From a virus (taxonomy: Duplodnaviria; Heunggongvirae; Uroviricota; Caudoviricetes): a DNA stretch of 34,373 nucleotides. The stretch spans positions 1-34,373 of the IMG/VR virus record IMGVR_UViG_2713896907_000006, one strand, 5' to 3'. Below the pieces are notes generated by a model. That model saw only the letters and a list, made by a program, of their open reading frames with translations. It was not told the DNA's origin and did no database searches. A program made the translations under genes and the position numbers. This document shows positions 3,376 to 30,599 of this stretch, piece after piece; the first letter of the stretch is position 1; every line of letters begins with the position of its first letter.

Positions 3376-4485
3376 TCACTCTGTTTCTGCTATCCATTCT
3401 GGGATTTTTGCTTCAAGCTCAAGCTGCGTGGTAAAGCCGCTGTTATCAATGGTGTGCTCGGTTTTCGCAATAATCCAGTCCTGATTATCAATCTCGCTTT
3501 TAAATCCTGTTACCGTGCCATGCATTTCGGGGTAGAGTTCTGCGCGTCCACGTGCCAGCATGATGGAGAATGATGCGGCTCCGCGTTGTAGCTGCTGCCA
3601 CTTTGCCGCCGCTGCGCGTCTTGCTGCCTGCTCGTTCTGATAAGTCTTGCGTAACACAAACACATTGCCTTCCGCGCCTTCCATATAATCACCTTCACGG
3701 CTGCTGCTTTTCTCCTTTTTGGGTTTTGGCGGTTTGCGGCGTTTCACGCTGACTTTTTTCTTTTTCCCGTAATTAAGATCAAGCCAGTAGGCGCGTACAC
3801 CCGTATACGCCTCGCGGTCAGCAATGCGGAACTGATGGCGATCGCCGCTGCTGCGTGTGATGGCAAACGATGGCAATGGTTTTCCCTGCGCGTTCACGCC
3901 ACCACCTGGCATAATGAATAACAGATTACCGCTTTTTACCGTGGTGATTGCGCCCAGCATTTCCGCCATGCGTGTAAGGAAGGACATGTCGCTTTCTTCG
4001 GTCTGGTCGGCGTGGTCGATTTCGATATCCATCAGCATTTCGCTGATTTGCGGTTTCAGGCCGTATCGGTGAGCAATTGCAGACACCACGCGTTCAACGG
4101 TCACATCATGCCAGGATACTTCGCGCTTGACGTTAAATTCATCCCGAAAATCTGCGCTTCTGGCTGAAATGGTCAGTCTGTCGGGCGGTCCTTCATGAGC
4201 AATTTCATCAACAATGTAAGTGCCTTTTTCTGTCAGCGGTTCGCCTTTCCAGCCAATGAGAACCGTCAGGCGAGCTCCCCGTGGCGGCAACTGCAACTGA
4301 CCATCAGCATCATCCAGCGTGATGGTGAGCTGGTCTGCTTCAAATCCCCGGTTGTCGGTCAGTGACAGGCTCATCAGGCGTTCTGCCACACCGGATAGCG
4401 TTTTCCCCTCCGCGAGAATATCAAAATCAGGCATCTTCACGGGGTCAGTACTCTGGTTGAACAGTTGCATGGTGGTGTCAATCAT
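3376..4485 (-). CDS. D: Tail protein gpD (late control gene D family)
   Basis: Translation from MIDTTMQLFNQSTDPVKMPDFDILAEGKTLSGVAERLMSL matches P2 gpD along its length, including the lysine-rich KKKKVSVKRRKPPKPKKEK segment. Start chosen at the ATG at 4485, preceded by a GGGAGGGAG ribosome-binding site; the ORF track extends further upstream to 4617. Confidence 0.85.
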   Translation of the reverse strand: MIDTTMQLFNQSTDPVKMPDFDILAEGKTLSGVAERLMSLSLTDNRGFEADQLTITLDDADGQLQLPPRGARLTVLIGWKGEPLTEKGTYIVDEIAHEGPPDRLTISARSADFRDEFNVKREVSWHDVTVERVVSAIAHRYGLKPQISEMLMDIEIDHADQTEESDMSFLTRMAEMLGAITTVKSGNLLFIMPGGGVNAQGKPLPSFAITRSSGDRHQFRIADREAYTGVRAYWLDLNYGKKKKVSVKRRKPPKPKKEKSSSREGDYMEGAEGNVFVLRKTYQNEQAARRAAAAKWQQLQRGAASFSIMLARGRAELYPEMHGTVTGFKSEIDNQDWIIAKTEHTIDNSGFTTQLELEAKIPEWIAETE

Positions 4486-11261: not shown

Positions 11262-11828
11262 TCATGGTTGAATAGGCCAAACAGGATCAAAAATATCAAC
11301 ACGATTTAACTGTATTCGATAATTCTTCCAGGCGTTCAGTAACAATGCTTCTTCTTTCGTTGCAATCTCCAGATCTACAGCATCCAGAAGTGGCGCAATA
11401 TGTTCATTAGCCAATTGCATCAGTCTGTTTTTTGTTTCTGCCGCTTCCCGTATCCGAAACAGTTTTTCTGCTTCTGCATCTTTCACCCAGGCTGTGCCGT
11501 TCCACTTCTGAAACTCCCCTTCCGGGGATAACCAGGTGACATGTTCCGGTAGCGGTCCGAGTTCAGAAATAAATAACGCATCCCCTGATGCCACGTCATA
11601 AACCGTTTTACCCCGATGGTCTTCAACGAGATGCCACGATACATCCTCACTGTTGAAAACAGCCACAAAGCCAGCCGGAATATCTGGCGGTGCAATATCG
11701 GTACTGTTTGCAGGCAGACCTGTATGAGGTGGGATGTATGCATCACCTTCACCAATAAATTCATTAGTTCCGGCCAGCAGATTATAAATTTTTATGGTCC
11801 GTGCTTGTTCACTCATTCTGAATGCCAT
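11262..11828 (-). CDS. G: Tail fibre assembly chaperone gpG
   Basis: 188 aa; C-terminal segment [26 protein letters not shown] resembles the P2 gpG C-terminus; located directly downstream of H. Confidence 0.8.
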
Positions 11829-24024: not shown

Positions 24025-25070
24025 TGAGCAGAAAAAATAAAAAAGTGCGCATGAGTTCACGCATTGATCTCGCTGATGCGCTCAGGAAAGAATCGTCGCT
24101 CAGTGCATTCACATTTGACGGCCCTTATCGCCTGACCGGGCATGATTTGCTGGACAATATGTACTGTGCTGATAACGGGCGGTGGTATGAAACCCCGGTG
24201 GACTGGTACGGTCTGGCAAGAGCCGCCCGGCAAACGTCCTGGCATCAGTCTGCGCTTTACTTTAAGCGCAATGTATTGCTCGGCTGCTATATTCCGCACC
24301 CGCTGCTTTCCCGACAGGATTTCTCGGCGCTGGCGCTGGACTGGTTTGTGTTCGGTAACGCATTCCTTGAGCTTCGAAGCAATATGCTCGGCGAACCGCT
24401 TAAATTACGGCACGCCCTGGCGAAATACATGCGACGCGGAAGTGATCTTGAATCATGGTGGTATGTGCAGGATGGCAAGGATGCGTTTCAGTTTCGCCCA
24501 GGCAAAGTGTGCCACCTGATGAACCCGGATATTAACCAGGAAATCTACGGCATGCCGGAATATCTCGGTGCATTACTCTCGGCCAGTCTTTCCCATTCGG
24601 CGGACATGTTCAGAAAACTGTATTACGACAACGGATCCCACGCCGGGTGCATCATCTACATCGGTGCAGCGCAGGTAAACCGCGAAAGCATGGACTCCCT
24701 GAAAGAAACGCTACAGGGTGCGCGTGGTGGTGGTGCATTTAAAAATGTGCTCATTCATGCGCCCAACGGGGGCAAAGAGGGTGTGCAAATTTTGCCGTTC
24801 CAGCAGATCACCGCAAAGGATGAGTTCATGAATGTTAAGGCTGCATCCCGTGATGATGTGCTGGCTGCGCACCGCGTTCCACCGCAACTGATGGGGGCGA
24901 TGCCGGGCGAAAAAAGTGCGTTTGGTGATGTGGAGAAGGCCGCGCGGGTTTACGCAATTAACGAGCTGATGCCCGTCATGGAGGCCATGAAGCACATCAA
25001 TGACTGGCTGGGCGAAGAGGTGATCCGCTTTAACCCTTACGCACTGTTAGACCCCCAGCCCACATCCTGA
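24024..25070 (+). CDS. Q: Portal protein gpQ
   Basis: 348 aa, start overlapping the P stop; matches P2 gpQ in size and position. Confidence 0.9.
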   Translation: MSRKNKKVRMSSRIDLADALRKESSLSAFTFDGPYRLTGHDLLDNMYCADNGRWYETPVDWYGLARAARQTSWHQSALYFKRNVLLGCYIPHPLLSRQDFSALALDWFVFGNAFLELRSNMLGEPLKLRHALAKYMRRGSDLESWWYVQDGKDAFQFRPGKVCHLMNPDINQEIYGMPEYLGALLSASLSHSADMFRKLYYDNGSHAGCIIYIGAAQVNRESMDSLKETLQGARGGGAFKNVLIHAPNGGKEGVQILPFQQITAKDEFMNVKAASRDDVLAAHRVPPQLMGAMPGEKSAFGDVEKAARVYAINELMPVMEAMKHINDWLGEEVIRFNPYALLDPQPTS

Positions 25071-25546
25071 CGCGCTTCGCTTGTCTGCTGCTTCGCCTGG
25101 GCATAAAAAATTTATGCCCCGACTCTCCAGCTCCTGTATCAATCAGATAATTTCACGACGCCTTCCAGCTTATTGCCATCATCGACGGTCAGGCTCTTAC
25201 GCAATCCCACCGCGTTGACTGCATGTTCCTGCCGCCTCAGTGCGATTTTGGCGGCCTTATCTGTTCAAAAGCCCTTACGTCTTTTTCACACTCAGCGTGA
25301 GAAATACAGCCATTCTGTTGTGTCGCTGCGACATCGTTCAGGGAATGCTATTTACCCCCTGAAACGCGGGCTGTTCCCCCGTCACCTGCGCGCAGAAAAA
25401 ACGCGTTTTTTTGTGCATGCACGGATCCTTGACGGATCCAGCCGCCATGCGGGCCGGAAGGGCAAAAAGTCATTCAAAAAAATTGTGCAAATTTGTGCAC
25501 TATTGTGCATTGAAATAAACGCCCTGGGGGAGGGCGTTTTGCTCAT
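25071..25546. other. Non-coding region expected to contain cos (not pinpointed)
   Basis: In P2 cos lies between Q and the accessory tin/old region. This gap contains a 9-bp hairpin (25099-25119), AAAAAACGCGTTTTTT and GGATCC-TTGAC-GGATCC palindromes, three phased TTGTGCA repeats and a GC hairpin. No exact P2/186 cohesive-end sequence was recognised. Confidence 0.4.
25483..25509. repeat. Three direct TTGTGCA repeats spaced exactly 10 bp apart
   Basis: TTGTGCA begins at 25483, 25493 and 25503. Confidence 0.8.
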
Positions 25547-25810
25547 CTATTTATAGCCCTGCCCCTTACTGGCCAGCGCCCTGATGGCAGGGCGTGCCAA
25601 CACCATATTTTGGCAATGATGAATTGCCCGGCAAAATTCATCTCTACCCATTGGATGCTCAACTGGCAATGTTAAATACAGGTTCCATGCATCGCCTAAA
25701 AGTTGGGCTATCTTTTGTTCTTCAGATGTCAGCAAGCAAGCGGTATCCGTAAAATAATCATACTTTTCATGTATGTTATTTAACGGCTTTTTCTTAGTGG
25801 TATCGGTCAT
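25547..25810 (-). CDS. Hypothetical small protein (87 aa)
   Basis: ORF translationally coupled to the upstream gene; contains an HP...EF...IH..Q pattern. No confident family assignment. Confidence 0.55.
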   Translation of the reverse strand: MTDTTKKKPLNNIHEKYDYFTDTACLLTSEEQKIAQLLGDAWNLYLTLPVEHPMGRDEFCRAIHHCQNMVLARPAIRALASKGQGYK

Positions 25811-26121
25811 TGAGTCAACTTAATAGCAAATACTTTTACTGGCTCTGGTCCAAAATGTGGATGTGTTATCACCTTGATCTCATATCCCCCATATGGAACA
25901 TCAATTCTGCGGCTTAAATCGTCGCGTTTCGGATACCCCTTAGTAATAATCAATCGATCATAGCTCTTATCCAATATACGGCGAGACCAGTATGAATTAA
26001 CCAGGCGATACTCTTCCGTTTTCTCTCCGCGAATCATGGCATCGAAGTATTCACCTTTGACGGCAAGTTGCAGGTTAGCCACGGTTAACCTCCTGCGGCG
26101 GCTCTGCAGCAAAATACTCAA
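25807..26121 (-). CDS. ASCH/PUA-like domain protein (DUF3850-like)
   Basis: LAVKGEYFDAMIRGEKTEEYR resembles the N-terminal signature of ASCH/DUF3850 proteins; about 100 aa. Confidence 0.55.
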   Translation of the reverse strand: MSILLQSRRRRLTVANLQLAVKGEYFDAMIRGEKTEEYRLVNSYWSRRILDKSYDRLIITKGYPKRDDLSRRIDVPYGGYEIKVITHPHFGPEPVKVFAIKLTQ

Positions 26122-26407
26122 TACCTTTATCCCAGATGGATTTTATGGTCGTCCATGTGACTGGTACTTTAATTTCAATTCTCCCGCTCCCGTCACAGGT
26201 TTCGCAATCATCATCGCCAAAACATTCCGGGCAGTTTATAAACGTAGTTTCTGAAAACTCACCGGATAGCACACCCTTAGCGCCGTTCTCAACGGTTAGT
26301 CTCCTCGGTACCATAACCCAACCATCTGGAGTTACCGGAGAGTTGCCCGATGGCGCGTTCAACTTGGTGATTTTACGTTGTAACCATTCTTTGGTAATGG
26401 TGGACAT
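26075..26407 (-). CDS. Small zinc-finger protein with DnaJ-type CxxCxGxG motif
   Basis: Start at the ATG at 26407 preceded by AGGAG; contains CPEC...CETCDGSG. 110 aa. Confidence 0.6.
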   Translation of the reverse strand: MSTITKEWLQRKITKLNAPSGNSPVTPDGWVMVPRRLTVENGAKGVLSGEFSETTFINCPECFGDDDCETCDGSGRIEIKVPVTWTTIKSIWDKGIEYFAAEPPQEVNRG

Positions 26408-26421
26408 AGTTGCTCCTGTTT

Positions 26422-26736
26422 TCACTCCGGGAAAAACGCTTGAATATTTTTTTTCATTTGTTGCATGGTTCCTTCGCTGTTCGTTGCTGATTGTGTTGTT
26501 TTTTCTGGCTGTGCTGGCAGTAACGACATCCTGATTTCGTCTTCTGACCATTCTGCCAGCGAGTACGCCAGAGCGGGGGCTCGTTTTATGAGTGACAGTC
26601 CGGCCAAAAAGGCCGCGCGTTGTGCGCGGCTGCGTTCTGAGGCTGGCAGGCTGTCTAGGTAACTGCACGCCTCCTGCTCACTCTTGACGGCGGCTGGCTT
26701 CAGATAGAAACTTATCCGCCTGGTTGGTGTGGTCAT
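26422..26736 (-). CDS. parR: ParR-like partition adaptor (plasmid R1 ParR/StbB family)
   Basis: MTTPTRRISFYLKPAAV...LDSLPASERSRAQRAAFLAGLSL aligns by eye with R1 ParR (RRTIAFKLNP...LDSIPQGERSRLNRAALTAGLAL). Start codon overlaps the parM stop. Confidence 0.8.
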   Translation of the reverse strand: MTTPTRRISFYLKPAAVKSEQEACSYLDSLPASERSRAQRAAFLAGLSLIKRAPALAYSLAEWSEDEIRMSLLPAQPEKTTQSATNSEGTMQQMKKNIQAFFPE

Positions 26737-26740
26737 TGGT

Positions 26741-27700
26741 TTACTCCTTGTCCATTGCGTACAACCCATTAACCAGAGCAAACTGTGGCACTCCGTCCGC
26801 GATGAAAGTCGCATTAACTCCGCAGGCTTCGCGGATAGCGGGTGCCACAATCTCCGCCCCTCCACCGACAACCATCACCCGCCCGTAACCGGAAAAACCC
26901 GCCAGCGCGCGGATCACGCGTTGTTTCAGTGTTTCTTCCTTTTCACGAATCACCGCCATCAGGCTGGCGTAATGCGCGTCATTGTGGATGTGCTGGCGCA
27001 GCCAGGCTTCATCGTGGCGATGTTCGATAATAGTATTGGCGATGTGGTGACTGGTGCGCATACCGTTAGTGGCCATCACCGACAGTACGGCATCGGCCAT
27101 CAGAGAAACGCCTACGTGTGGATCGCAAAACACCTGGCTGATACCTGCCAGTTGCCCCTGAACCTTTGCCACATCCAGCGTGGTTCCGCCCAAATCCACA
27201 ATCAGCAGGGATTCAAACGGACTCATGTCAGCCAGTGCTTTAAAGCCAGCCGGAATGGATTCAGGCATAACCCGCACGTTACGGATAGTGAATGCCTCAC
27301 CGTTCTGGTACTCCACCGGGCGCATGACGTTCGCTTTTTTGCGGTTGATGTTGGCCATGTCCGGCTGTGCGTTTGTGTCGAAATATTCGCTCAGTGGCAG
27401 GGTGACAACCACATCTACTTCCTGTGGTGTGATGCCTGATTTGACCAGTGCGTGGTGAATGGCGATTACATTCACATCGCTGTACTGGTATTGCGTGTCG
27501 GTCGTCTGGACAAAGCGATCGCTGACCGGATCAAAACCATAGCGCACGCCATCAAGCATGTAGTTCGCAGGCTGCGAGCCACCGAATGGCGCAGACCATT
27601 CCGACTTGAAGCTGTTCGGGCTGATGGCGTTGCGGCGTTCGCCGTTCTCACTCCATGCCAGCTTGATGTTGGTGGAGCCGTCGTCGATACAAATTTTCAT
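26741..27700 (-). CDS. parM: ParM-like actin-type partition ATPase (plasmid R1 ParM/StbA family)
   Basis: MKICIDDGSTNIKLAW...ISPNSFKSEW...YQYSDVNVIAIHHAL...VMPESIPAGF...LLIVDLGGTTLDV...VMVVGGGAE closely parallels R1 ParM along the whole length. Confidence 0.9.
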   Translation of the reverse strand: MKICIDDGSTNIKLAWSENGERRNAISPNSFKSEWSAPFGGSQPANYMLDGVRYGFDPVSDRFVQTTDTQYQYSDVNVIAIHHALVKSGITPQEVDVVVTLPLSEYFDTNAQPDMANINRKKANVMRPVEYQNGEAFTIRNVRVMPESIPAGFKALADMSPFESLLIVDLGGTTLDVAKVQGQLAGISQVFCDPHVGVSLMADAVLSVMATNGMRTSHHIANTIIEHRHDEAWLRQHIHNDAHYASLMAVIREKEETLKQRVIRALAGFSGYGRVMVVGGGAEIVAPAIREACGVNATFIADGVPQFALVNGLYAMDKE

Positions 27701-27730
27701 GTCGATTTTCCTTATGTTGATTAATTAACC

Positions 27731-27840
27731 GTTTACGGGATTCTGAAATCCCGCTTTTGCCTGTTTTGTGCGCGCTTCATATTTCGCGGCGCGTTTTTTG
27801 CTCATTTACGGGATTTGTGAATCCCGTTTCTGTCTGTTTT
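27731..27840. repeat. Two copies of an approximately 40-bp element, each containing a CGGGATT-N4-AATCCCG hairpin followed by a T-rich tract
   Basis: Copy 1 hairpin 27736-27753, copy 2 hairpin 27809-27826; both are preceded by TTTACGGGA and followed by CTGTTTT. They straddle the gene A stop codon, just upstream of parM. Confidence 0.75.
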
Positions 27841-30599
27841 TTGTTCCCACGGGTCAGGCCACCCCGCAGCAGGTCTGCTTTGCGGTTGGCGCGTTCAGTG
27901 GTTTCACTGATTCTCTGTGCGTGCTCTGCGTCACGGATGGCGCGCAGCATGTCAGAAAGCACGGTAACGGGGGTTTTTATGGTGCTCTGGTCCTGCTGAA
28001 GTGTGGATGCCAGACGTGCGGCGGCTTCGGGGTCTGATGCCCCCAGTTGTTCCAGATAGCTGGCGACCGGGTTATGGCGGATCTCTGTGCTGCTTACGCC
28101 GTGATTACGGCTCAGGCGCTGCCAGAGCTGCGTGATTCGGCTGTCCGGGCGGGTATCCGGTTTGCGTACAATTTCAAATCCCTGCGGTGCAATGATGCTG
28201 CCGTCAACGTACAGACTGCCGCCCCGTAACAGGTGCTGCATCTGCTGTTCACCGATATGCAGGCCGAGAGATTCAGCAGACTCCCGCCATTCTTTAGCGA
28301 GTAACTCGTGGTTATCAGGCAAAGGCTGTGGCTGTTTGCGGCTCTGTGTCCAGTTCTGCATTTCATCACTGCTGTTTTTTGCCTGTTTGTCACGCAGCGA
28401 ACGCATCAGCGCCCGGCGTTCGTGCCGTTTCAGTGAGCGCATCCATTCATCCACATCAACGCCGTCAGGAAGCTGCGGCCACGGTGCTGGCCGTTCTTCC
28501 GGCTGTTCTGTCCCGTTGTTGTCCGTTTCCTGTACACGGGGACAGTTATTGCCACGAGTCCAAGGGGCGGCAGGGCCGCCCTGAAGGTCAAAACTATTTT
28601 CGTTGGCGCTGTCTTCCGCTTCCGGTTTACGTCTTACCAGCTTCCAGTTATCCGGGTGCGTGCACACGCGGGAAGATTCCCCGATTTGTGGCGACCAGAT
28701 CCCGTAAATCTGTACGCTTTGCTCGCCGTAATCGTTCAGCTCTTCTGCGAGGTCGTAGGCGGTGCGAATCAGGTAATCCTTGCGTGGAACAAGTACGCCA
28801 CCCTGTTTCTCAATGTAGGTGGCAAAACACCCGGCATCAGCGGCAGCAAGTACCGCATCCATTGCGTCATTTTCCAGACGTTGTGGACCTTCCGGGTTGC
28901 GGGCCATCTGACTGGCAAGGCGGCGGAGTTCACGCCATACCTGACGGGAGGGGATACCAAAGAACTGGAACTGGCGGACGCGGTGAAGGCGCGCCCAGCC
29001 GATGGCGCGTTCCACGCTCTCGGCCATTGATTTTCCGGTTTCGTGATCAACGCGTGGCTTGCCTGTTTTCGGGTCAATGCCATCCACGGCGCGGCTGTCC
29101 AGGTTCTTTCCGATGTAGGTGGCGATGTAGCTGGTCGGCGTACCTTTTGAACCGTCGACGTACTCTGCCTTAAAGCGCGGAGTTATGTCATTGCCCAGCT
29201 CGTGGCGGTCTTCGCGAATGGCAATATCACGGGTGATGTCCACGATGCTGTCGATTTCTTCAGGATGTGCAAAGACCATCATGTGCCAGTGCACGGTGCC
29301 GTCATGGTGTGGCTCCACCGTGCGGATGCCATACCAGCGCAGGCCGTCGCGATTCAGTTTTTTGCGGACCGCCTTAAAAAAAGTGTTAACCAGGTAATCA
29401 CTGGAATCGCGCATGGTGGCGCCGTTCCATTTGGGATTCGGATGACCGTTCTCTGTTGTAGCGTGGTATTTTGACGGGCAGGTGACAGTCAGAAACACCG
29501 CTTTGTCGCCACGGGCTTCGGCCAGAAGTTCCAGTCCCTTCATGGTGGCCATCATTTCTGCCTTACGGTGGACCGGGTTACTTACTCCCGCGTAATACAC
29601 CGTCTCGAGATCAATCGTGAACCCGTCTTCATTTTCCAGCATGAAACTTTTCAGGAAATCGCGTGTTTTCTCGCGCTGTGCGCGAAATTCACTTAATGCG
29701 TCCTGACTCAGATAGGGTGATGTTTTTCTGGAAACCAGACAGGCAGCGCGGAGTTGTTCCTCTCTCCATTCGCAACGTAAAAGCCACAGTTTGCGTTTCC
29801 ACCAGTCCGCACAGGTCAGGCGGAGGATTGCACCCGGCAGCAGTTCCGTGTCCGGTTCGTTCTTCCGGTCTTTGTCTGTTGTCAGTGCGTCATAATGCGG
29901 CGGCACTGTGTGCAGATGTAACGCCATGCGGGCCAGCATCTGATACGCCTTCAGCGTTATATCCATGGTCAGCTCGCCGTCGGTCGCGCCACAGCCATCG
30001 CAGAGTTTTTCGAAGGTGCTGCTGAACATCGCCGCTGTCATGACGGCCAGCGTCTGTATCTGGTGCTTGTTGAGCTGTGGCAGGTACAGCAAATCGTCCA
30101 GACGTTCACGTCCGGCAAGGGAGCGATAACCCGGAGTCAGCCAGCGACGGTCGGTGCGGGCCAGACGTTCGAATATTTTGCGCAGGGTTCCGCGCGCATA
30201 GCGTTCCGCCTGCCAGCTCTTTTTGCCTTTCTGGCGGTCAGATTCCTGTTTTTTGCGCAGGAAAGAGAGATGGCGGATAAGCGGATCACGCAGATAGGAC
30301 GGCAGCAGACGCAGTGCGGCAATTGCTTCATCCACCGCACCTCGTGCCTGCTTTCTGGCTTCTCTTGCCAGTGTGATGGCTTTGTCCTGTTTTTCCTGTG
30401 CGTCCAGGCTTTTATTAATCAGATTGCCCAGCGGTGCAGCGGAGAACGCCGCATCAGCCATTTCCTGGCGGCGCTCGTTCTCTGCCCGGTAGGCATCCAG
30501 CCAGGAAGAAAGAAGGGAGGGGCGGACAGGCTCCCCCGTTCCCTCGCGACCGACTGCACAGCGTGGTTGTTGCCAGTCTCTGATGTACTCCGTTGTCAC
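27777..30599 (-). CDS. A: Replication initiation endonuclease gpA (rolling-circle HUH nickase family)
   Basis: Contains HHDGTVHWHMMVF (HUH-type motif); largest early-region ORF, in the position of P2 gene A. At 940 aa it is longer than the P2 and 186 A proteins as I recall them. Confidence 0.85.
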   Translation of the reverse strand: MTTEYIRDWQQPRCAVGREGTGEPVRPSLLSSWLDAYRAENERRQEMADAAFSAAPLGNLINKSLDAQEKQDKAITLAREARKQARGAVDEAIAALRLLPSYLRDPLIRHLSFLRKKQESDRQKGKKSWQAERYARGTLRKIFERLARTDRRWLTPGYRSLAGRERLDDLLYLPQLNKHQIQTLAVMTAAMFSSTFEKLCDGCGATDGELTMDITLKAYQMLARMALHLHTVPPHYDALTTDKDRKNEPDTELLPGAILRLTCADWWKRKLWLLRCEWREEQLRAACLVSRKTSPYLSQDALSEFRAQREKTRDFLKSFMLENEDGFTIDLETVYYAGVSNPVHRKAEMMATMKGLELLAEARGDKAVFLTVTCPSKYHATTENGHPNPKWNGATMRDSSDYLVNTFFKAVRKKLNRDGLRWYGIRTVEPHHDGTVHWHMMVFAHPEEIDSIVDITRDIAIREDRHELGNDITPRFKAEYVDGSKGTPTSYIATYIGKNLDSRAVDGIDPKTGKPRVDHETGKSMAESVERAIGWARLHRVRQFQFFGIPSRQVWRELRRLASQMARNPEGPQRLENDAMDAVLAAADAGCFATYIEKQGGVLVPRKDYLIRTAYDLAEELNDYGEQSVQIYGIWSPQIGESSRVCTHPDNWKLVRRKPEAEDSANENSFDLQGGPAAPWTRGNNCPRVQETDNNGTEQPEERPAPWPQLPDGVDVDEWMRSLKRHERRALMRSLRDKQAKNSSDEMQNWTQSRKQPQPLPDNHELLAKEWRESAESLGLHIGEQQMQHLLRGGSLYVDGSIIAPQGFEIVRKPDTRPDSRITQLWQRLSRNHGVSSTEIRHNPVASYLEQLGASDPEAAARLASTLQQDQSTIKTPVTVLSDMLRAIRDAEHAQRISETTERANRKADLLRGGLTRGNKKQTETGFTNPVNEQKTRREI

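Follow-up and report, generated by a model that had tools for sequence, protein, structure and literature searches.

A conserved pair of palindromic repeats upstream of parMR in a P88-like prophage as a candidate parC-like ParR-binding site

Introduction

The parC site of plasmid R1 spans 159 bp and is made of a 39-bp promoter-containing core with a set of five 11-bp iterons on each side; the iterons are bound by ParR dimers and are both the operator and the centromere (PMC2241845). Partition loci on integrating elements have precedents. The srpMRC system of the SXT/R391 integrative and conjugative elements is a type II-like partition locus on a normally chromosomal element, and its site, srpC, is located upstream of the actin-like gene, contains four short repeats in direct and inverted orientation, binds the adaptor, and stabilizes the excised form (PMC4489591). 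The AlpAC/alpS system of the Corynebacterium prophage CGP3 is composed of an actin-like filament protein and an adaptor that binds repeats upstream of its own operon, and it supports the replication or transport of induced phage DNA (PMC4446434). Here, we analyzed a duplicated palindromic element found upstream of parM and parR in a 34,373-nucleotide stretch of viral DNA (IMG/VR record IMGVR_UViG_2713896907_000006, positions 1 to 34,373), hereafter the window. The window is a P88-like prophage (Xuanwuvirus, Peduoviridae, P2 family), 95.6–96.4% identical to 14 deposited phage records over the stretch. In deposited P88-like genomes, parM and parR are already annotated and the cis site carries no annotation; our literature searches found no published study of the par locus of P88-like phages or of the cis site.

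The repeat is real, conserved, linked to parMR, and laid out like parC, and its readings as a hairpin, a terminator, a peptide, or a replication origin fail. We propose that the two palindromes are a compact, parC-like pair of ParR binding sites belonging to a prophage type II (ParMRC) partition module, and we give this reading a probability of about 0.65. It is partly supported, by comparative and positional evidence, from which we infer ParR binding, centromere activity, and the timing of both in the phage life cycle.

The repeated element and its position

The features of the element and the genes that surround it are the following:

27805–27843, minus strand: distal repeat unit (copy 2), from the repeat search.
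27809–27826, no strand assigned: distal palindrome, CGGGATT-TGTG-AATCCCG on the + strand, an exact pattern match; proposed ParR site with two inverted A(A/T)CCC(G/A) half-sites.
27771–27804, minus strand: GC-rich 34-nt core between the units, from the sequence; it holds the gene A stop and has the same position as the promoter core of R1 parC.
27732–27770, minus strand: proximal repeat unit (copy 1), A–parM intergenic, from the repeat search.
27736–27753, no strand assigned: proximal palindrome, CGGGATT-CTGA-AATCCCG on the + strand, a pattern match; its GGG lies 52 nt before the parM ATG.
27717–27728, minus strand: conserved TTAATTAATCAA block, located after the proximal site and before the Shine-Dalgarno sequence of parM (AAGGA, 27713–27709), from the three-clade alignment.
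27777–30599, minus strand: gene A, P2-family replication nickase of 940 aa, whose 3' end overlaps the distal unit (Pfam Phage_GPA, 1.8e-129).
26741–27700, minus strand: parM, actin-like partition ATPase (Pfam StbA_N, 3.8e-82, and ParM C-terminal domain, 1.3e-68).
26422–26736, minus strand: parR, ribbon-helix-helix adaptor, the proposed reader of the two sites (Pfam Plasmid_stab_B, PF10784, 1.6e-24).

The repeat search detected a 39-nt direct repeat with 79% identity between its copies and 73 nt between their starts. Within each copy is a perfect 7+7 palindrome of 18 bp, CGGGATT-N4-AATCCCG, followed on the + strand by a T-rich tract, and the core TTTACGGGATT...AATCCCG showed no difference between the two copies. 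When the whole window was searched for this pattern with zero mismatches, exactly two copies were found, and the chance expectation for a pattern of 14 specified bases is about 3e-4 by our own estimate. The 39-nt unit was also the strongest repeat of the whole par region (25050–27900), and the repeat search found no other iteron array near parMR within those limits. The stop codon of gene A (27779–27777) falls between the copies, the distal one being placed within the last 22 codons of gene A and the proximal one in the 76-nt gap that separates A and parM.

A preliminary description, generated from the sequence alone, had reported two near-identical, hairpin-containing copies about 73 bp apart, straddling the gene A stop and each followed by a T-rich tract on the + strand. 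All of this was recovered here, with 39-nt units and a spacing of exactly 73, and the gene labels given in it agreed with the protein families, since 30599..27777 (minus strand) encodes a Phage_GPA protein and 27700..26741 (minus strand) encodes ParM. The element was placed correctly, and only its end had to be moved, because the unit reaches 27843 and not 27840.

Comparison with known partition sites

The element resembles R1 parC in being located directly upstream of parM–parR, with a ParR of the same Pfam family (PF10784), and in having two repeat blocks around a short core, of 39 bp in R1 and 34 nt here. Moreover, the AAACCCAAAA iterons of an R1-like plasmid resemble the A(A/T)CCC(G/A) half-sites, and the offset between its blocks is 72 bp. 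In contrast to R1 parC, the element extends with its distal block into the 3' end of a replication gene, and its replicon is an integrating prophage and not a plasmid. Three plasmids encoding a ParM about 47–53% identical were included in the comparison. An IncFII Citrobacter plasmid (NZ_CP024882.1; ParM 51.7% identical) has two repeats spaced by 73 bp directly upstream of parM–parR; however, these repeats are 21 nt long, AT-rich, and non-palindromic, and a near-consensus TTGATA-17-TATAAT promoter is found between them. In an IncL/M plasmid, 10-bp iterons occur with offsets of 72 and 73 bp.

The two systems of integrating elements are more distant in their components. SrpR has no recognizable similarity to ParR, SrpM is distant from ParM, the srpC repeats are 13 bp long and of other sequence, and the locus is under SetCD control, whereas the prophage studied here has clear R1-family ParM and ParR, known from sequence alone. 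In the AlpAC/alpS system, the adaptor gene comes first and the short TTAAnnG repeats number 24; its host is Gram-positive, and its proteins have no sequence relationship to those studied here.

Linkage of the element to parMR

In one prophage contig (L052; IMG/VR UViG_2547132279_000014), gene A encodes 783 aa and is followed by an unrelated 155-aa open reading frame (ORF) before parM. Homology between this contig and the window sets in at the left edge of the distal unit, and the 155-aa ORF ends in the same tail, ...KQTKTGFTNPVNEQKTRSDI. In the Hafnia prophage, a 167-aa ORF is inserted between A and parM, and both sites are found within it or at its end. Since the sites stay when the upstream gene is replaced or an ORF is inserted, the repeat appears to belong to parMR. 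From these comparisons, the repeat is judged to co-travel with parMR and not with gene A. The C-terminal peptide shared by the upstream proteins would then be a by-product of the site, because the distal site occupies the final codons of the upstream gene, whatever that gene is. A tblastn search with the C-terminal domain of A returned only P88-like phages, all with parM, and so offered no parMR-free context for the tail.

A decayed par locus was found in E. coli 2013C-3181 (NZ_CP027312.1; positions 3440–3560 of locus L101), where parM and parR are internally deleted and a 73-bp deletion has merged the two repeat copies into one hybrid copy, apparently through recombination between the direct repeats. 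In L052 (positions 109–2924), the 155-aa ORF carries CxxC motifs, has no Pfam match, takes the place of the C-terminal part of A, and continues into the distal site; both palindromes of this contig have CAGGA in place of CGGGA.

Variation among close relatives

We collected 84 P88-like loci, which together with the window gave 64 distinct 303-nt upstream sequences. The repeat element was kept in all 85 close relatives examined, and the GGGA...TCCC core was near-invariant across them. The changes observed in the stems were one-sided throughout: the distal copy reads GGGACT in 30 of the 85 loci, and the proximal copy reads AATCCT in 22. Both variants preserve wobble pairing, on opposite strands, and no compensatory pairs were seen in the stems among the 85 loci. 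The one-sided changes therefore argue against a hairpin selected on either RNA strand, and a hairpin in single-stranded DNA is rejected on the same grounds.

The variability at codon positions 1/2/3 was 1.37/1.54/3.36 for gene A upstream of the repeat, which is a normal coding signature, 2.76/0.71/1.64 from the distal copy to the A stop, and 2.46/2.54/3.42 for a 26-codon ORF. In addition, changes in the length of A runs shift the frames of the gene A tail and of the 26-codon ORF in several loci. Because no coding signature was found and the length of these runs changes the frame, the sequence from the distal copy onward behaves as a non-coding cis element. The A6 runs concerned, at 27798–27803 and 27836–27841 (minus strand), were found as A5, A6, or A7 among otherwise near-identical loci, and in one of these (L014, with A5) the frame shift in the gene A tail fuses gene A to the 26-codon ORF. 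The variation in length could be real slippage or a homopolymer sequencing error.

The ParR protein has two conserved parts, an N-terminal RRISFYLKP strand and a C-terminal N-x3-(L/F)FP tail, and showed a weak match to the pB171 ParR structure 2JD3. Across the P88-like prophages (L001–L085), ParR was much more variable than ParM, which was 95–99% identical. The ParR helices fell into two allelic classes in the 84 P88-like loci, and the strand PTRRISFYLKP was invariant; this pattern suggests mosaicism or diversifying selection on the adaptor. A database search, open to any genomic context, recovered ParR relatives down to about 48% identity.

The paired sites in diverged prophages

The Hafnia prophage (L086; ParM 62% identical) contains GGGATTGAGGAAACCC and GGGTTCATTAAATCCC, 73 bp apart, and a Plesiomonas prophage (L089; ParM 63% identical) contains GCGGGACAACAAAAACCCG, which straddles the A stop, and GCGGGACAACACTAACCCA, 72 bp apart. 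The general pattern GGG-N10-CCC was rare; it matched five times in the 34-kb window, five times in 9 kb of the Hafnia prophage, and three times in 9 kb of the Plesiomonas one, and two matches in each source pair up, at 73, 73, and 72 bp in the window, Hafnia, and Plesiomonas, respectively. The distance from the proximal site to the parM ATG was 52, 55, and 59 nt in the same order. When the three clades were aligned, both sites were in register, without gaps in the sequence between them. In the same alignment, an ATTAAT(C/T)AA block before the Shine-Dalgarno sequence was invariant across the three clades; this TTAATTAATCAA block might be a weak -10 element or an AT-rich element related to translation.

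In Hafnia and Plesiomonas, the stems were only 3–4 bp long with 10-nt loops, and most of them were no better than those of shuffled sequence. The T tract, the 26-codon ORF, and the shared reading frame at the sites were all absent from both prophages. Conservation is limited to paired, inverted A(A/T)CCC(G/A) half-sites that share one face of the helix, the signature of a site for a dimeric protein on double-stranded DNA.

The ParR strand in Hafnia and Plesiomonas, clades with GGG-N10-CCC, is RR(I/V)SFYL. In a Serratia/Enterobacter clade of P2-like prophages, the strand is RKISFYL and the upstream repeats are quite different: in L090 (3855–3965), L095, L093, and L100, CTTAA(A)C-GGC motifs placed 93 bp apart flank a perfect inverted repeat with 19-20-bp arms, AGGAACGAAATAGAAAAAT ... 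ATTTTTCTATTTCGTTCCT, and 28 nt between the arms. The pattern is consistent with the DNA-reading strand of ParR and the type of site co-varying, on thin evidence. Searches of viral contigs recovered no locus with the Hafnia ParM and one with the Plesiomonas ParM, and a search of genome contigs with ParM returned three near-identical loci only.

Transcription and folding of the element

The consensus scan found no minus-strand terminator between A and parM, and a good terminator-like hairpin on this strand was found after the last small ORF downstream of parR (25500–25485). As no minus-strand terminator separates the two genes, parMR may be transcribed by read-through of the early operon from gene A. 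If so, we infer that the sites would be mainly a centromere and not an operator, with expression chiefly after induction or infection.

Both copies passed a loose consensus terminator scan on the + strand, where the T tracts are interrupted. The stems on this strand have 7–8 bp with four GC pairs, and the predicted energy is -9 to -10 kcal/mol (proximal copy, z = -0.72; distal copy, z = -2.82); on the minus strand, the folds reach -11 to -11.7 kcal/mol (z = -1.6 and -4.2). The terminator scan as a whole was not significant, because it gave 12 sites when 7.8 were expected.

Evaluation of the parC-like reading

In the mechanism that we propose, ParR dimers, encoded two genes downstream, would recognize, in double-stranded DNA, the A(A/T)CCC(G/A) half-sites in their inverted arrangement (GGGA...TCCC). 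As 73 bp correspond to about seven helical turns, the two sites would be placed on the same helix face, and this, together with their A-rich flanks, would let bound ParR assemble one nucleoprotein complex. Such a complex would cap and stabilize ParM filaments through the conserved C-terminal tail of ParR, as in plasmid R1. As the filaments grow, they would separate or position the copies of a phage genome that is excised or replicating. The ParR-binding step of this model is proposed from comparative evidence, and for the steps after it the model follows the R1 paradigm.

Several observations weigh against the parC-like reading. Where R1 parC has ten direct iterons of 11 bp and, in its core, a clear promoter, this locus has only two 18-bp palindromes with four inverted half-sites, and no recognizable promoter. 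Hidden 11-bp or tandem iterons were absent from 27700–27900, as judged with TRF and the repeat search; such arrays are, however, particular to R1, as srpC has no more than four repeats in mixed orientation. The consensus scan found no sigma-70 promoter at 27700–27860, and the best candidates from position-weight scoring were only at the 99–99.5th percentile of random positions. The phasing of A tracts at the sites was modest, a weak signal that ranked 57 among 1711 windows. The correlation between ParR and the site rests on few clades and one residue difference. Furthermore, the element was present in 1284 of 5426 complete E. coli genomes and was chromosomal in 1405 of its 1407 occurrences, so the need for a centromere is not obvious. 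The preliminary description had suggested that a ParR-binding centromere and the parM promoter would be found here. The first half of this suggestion has gained support from the co-travel with parMR, the pairs spaced by 72–73 bp, and the two-block layout shared with plasmids; the second has not, as the scans revealed no convincing promoter in the interval that separates the sites or in their vicinity, and for this reason the operator half of the parC model is unsupported here.

The sites might be bound by another protein, such as a phage regulator, a host nucleoid protein, or the gene A protein at an accessory site for replication, so that the link to parM would be regulatory or coincidental. 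Helically phased palindromic sites on double-stranded DNA suit many dimeric regulators, the end of gene A is overlapped by the distal site, and a ParR-repressible promoter is not visible. No sign of such a protein was seen, however, and we consider this unlikely, since the sites remain with parMR when the upstream gene is replaced (L052) or an ORF is inserted (Hafnia), and the core of the half-sites is like that of the R1 ParR iterons. A general regulator would predict further copies, and none was found elsewhere in the prophage; with regard to gene A, the homologue of the P2 ori nick region lies about 750 nt off, at 28542–28579. A role as RNA hairpins in the A–parM message (minus strand), as an element for processing or stability or for tuning parM translation, is quite improbable. 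The A–parM junction is probably co-transcribed, with no minus-strand terminator between the genes, and each copy does fold on that strand with the energies given above, but the common variants break one side of the stem only, compensatory changes are absent, and the stems of the Hafnia and Plesiomonas sites are short and mostly no better than shuffled sequence. Moreover, the element has no Rfam match, and the proximal hairpin leaves the Shine-Dalgarno sequence untouched. The emphasis that the preliminary description placed on hairpins was misplaced, as the stem is not the conserved feature and shrinks to 3–4 bp in other clades.

The same description offered, as its alternative, tandem intrinsic terminators on the + strand that stop antisense transcription into gene A. 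Both copies pass the + strand scan, each having T-rich DNA after a hairpin of about -9 to -10 kcal/mol, and the analogous palindromes of one Serratia locus also precede T5 on the antisense strand. This proposal did not survive the analysis of its context, and we regard it as very improbable. Over the roughly 2.6 kb from the Q stop (25070) to the repeats, the + strand has only short ORFs that overlap minus-strand genes, no protein-family search of these having been made, and better terminator-like sites for the P–Q operon are found 2 kb earlier, at about 25532–25708. A protective terminator would be expected downstream of parR and not after 1.3 kb antisense to parMR, shuffled sequence folds as stably as the proximal hairpin (z = -0.72), and both the stems and the T tracts are missing at the homologous sites of Hafnia and Plesiomonas. 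We give the least credence of all to a coding role, according to which the duplication would be of a C-terminal peptide, K-Q-x3-G-F-x-N-P-V-N, present in the gene A tail and in the 26-codon ORF (27805..27725, minus strand), which a +1 shift at A6 could join. Relative to the repeat, the two copies share one frame; of the 84 loci scored, 80 keep the 26-aa ORF open, and the A5 run of L014 fuses A to the frame of the small ORF. However, neither the tail nor the small ORF showed the excess of third-position variability found in upstream gene A, F-to-L and other replacements are frequent, and several loci carry homopolymer indels that shift the frames. The proximal copy of Plesiomonas is interrupted by an in-frame stop and has no ORF, the Hafnia sites are in a different frame, and in L052 the same tail is found on an unrelated protein.

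Significance of a candidate parC-like site in the prophage

If ParR does bind the two palindromes, they would be the third, cis-acting component of a complete R1-family ParMRC system in an integrating P2-like prophage. The centromere would be unusually small, palindromic, and partly overlapping with a gene, a very small site of four inverted half-sites in a family whose textbook example has ten direct iterons. We put forward, as a speculative extension that we think possible but doubtful, that this is a minimal two-palindrome centromere, located partly in the last codons of the initiator gene and promoterless, whose genes are expressed by read-through of the P2-type early (lytic) operon. The ParMRC system would then act at induction or infection and not in plasmid maintenance, positioning or separating excised rolling-circle genomes or stabilizing the excised circle. 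If true, CGP3 AlpAC and srpMRC would have a Gram-negative counterpart from the R1 family, carried by a prophage found in about a quarter of sequenced E. coli.

If bound by ParR, the element would also offer a precise target of 110 bp for asking why an integrated phage keeps a plasmid partition machine. Stabilization of the excised circle, positioning of replicating genomes, and incompatibility against plasmids with a related parC are possible uses. For annotation, the proposed parC-like site accounts for the presence of the same 20-residue tail on unrelated upstream genes, and it warns against terminator calls at this place.

Prophage context and neighboring genes

Gene A was 31% identical to P2 A over 687 aa in a BLASTP comparison. 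On the minus strand, A, parM, and parR form an uninterrupted string with three small ORFs. The last three, at 25547–26413, encode about 112, 104, and 87 aa, have no Pfam match, and are probably cargo genes that end the early operon. At the right end of the window, an integrase and a helix-turn-helix repressor are encoded.

One further feature, which is not part of the element, lies inside gene A:

28542–28579, minus strand: homologue of the P2 ori nick region (blastn against the P2 nick site at 29892, with 79% identity in 38 nt).

The sequence is GCGGCCCTGCCGCCCCTTGGACTCGTGGCAATAACTGT in the window and GCGGCATCGCCGCGCCTCGGAGTCCTGTCAATAACTGT in P2. Because of this homology to the P2 ori nick region, the replication origin of the phage is probably at this position. 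The repeat upstream of parM was also considered as a P2-type replication origin, and this was rejected, as the nick-site homologue is found elsewhere, about 750 nt away.

The stretch that runs from the portal gene Q to where the minus-strand operon ends is gene-poor, and a P2-type cos site is expected there. It contains the tandem repeat AAAATTGTGC, in 3.1 copies at 25479–25509, and the strongest 10-11-bp A-tract periodicity of the window, at 25321–25500. Finally, in the part of the window that carries the tail genes, a full-length match to Rfam RF02111 (IS009) was detected on the minus strand at 11287–11485, with a score of 150.6 bits and E = 1.7e-35.

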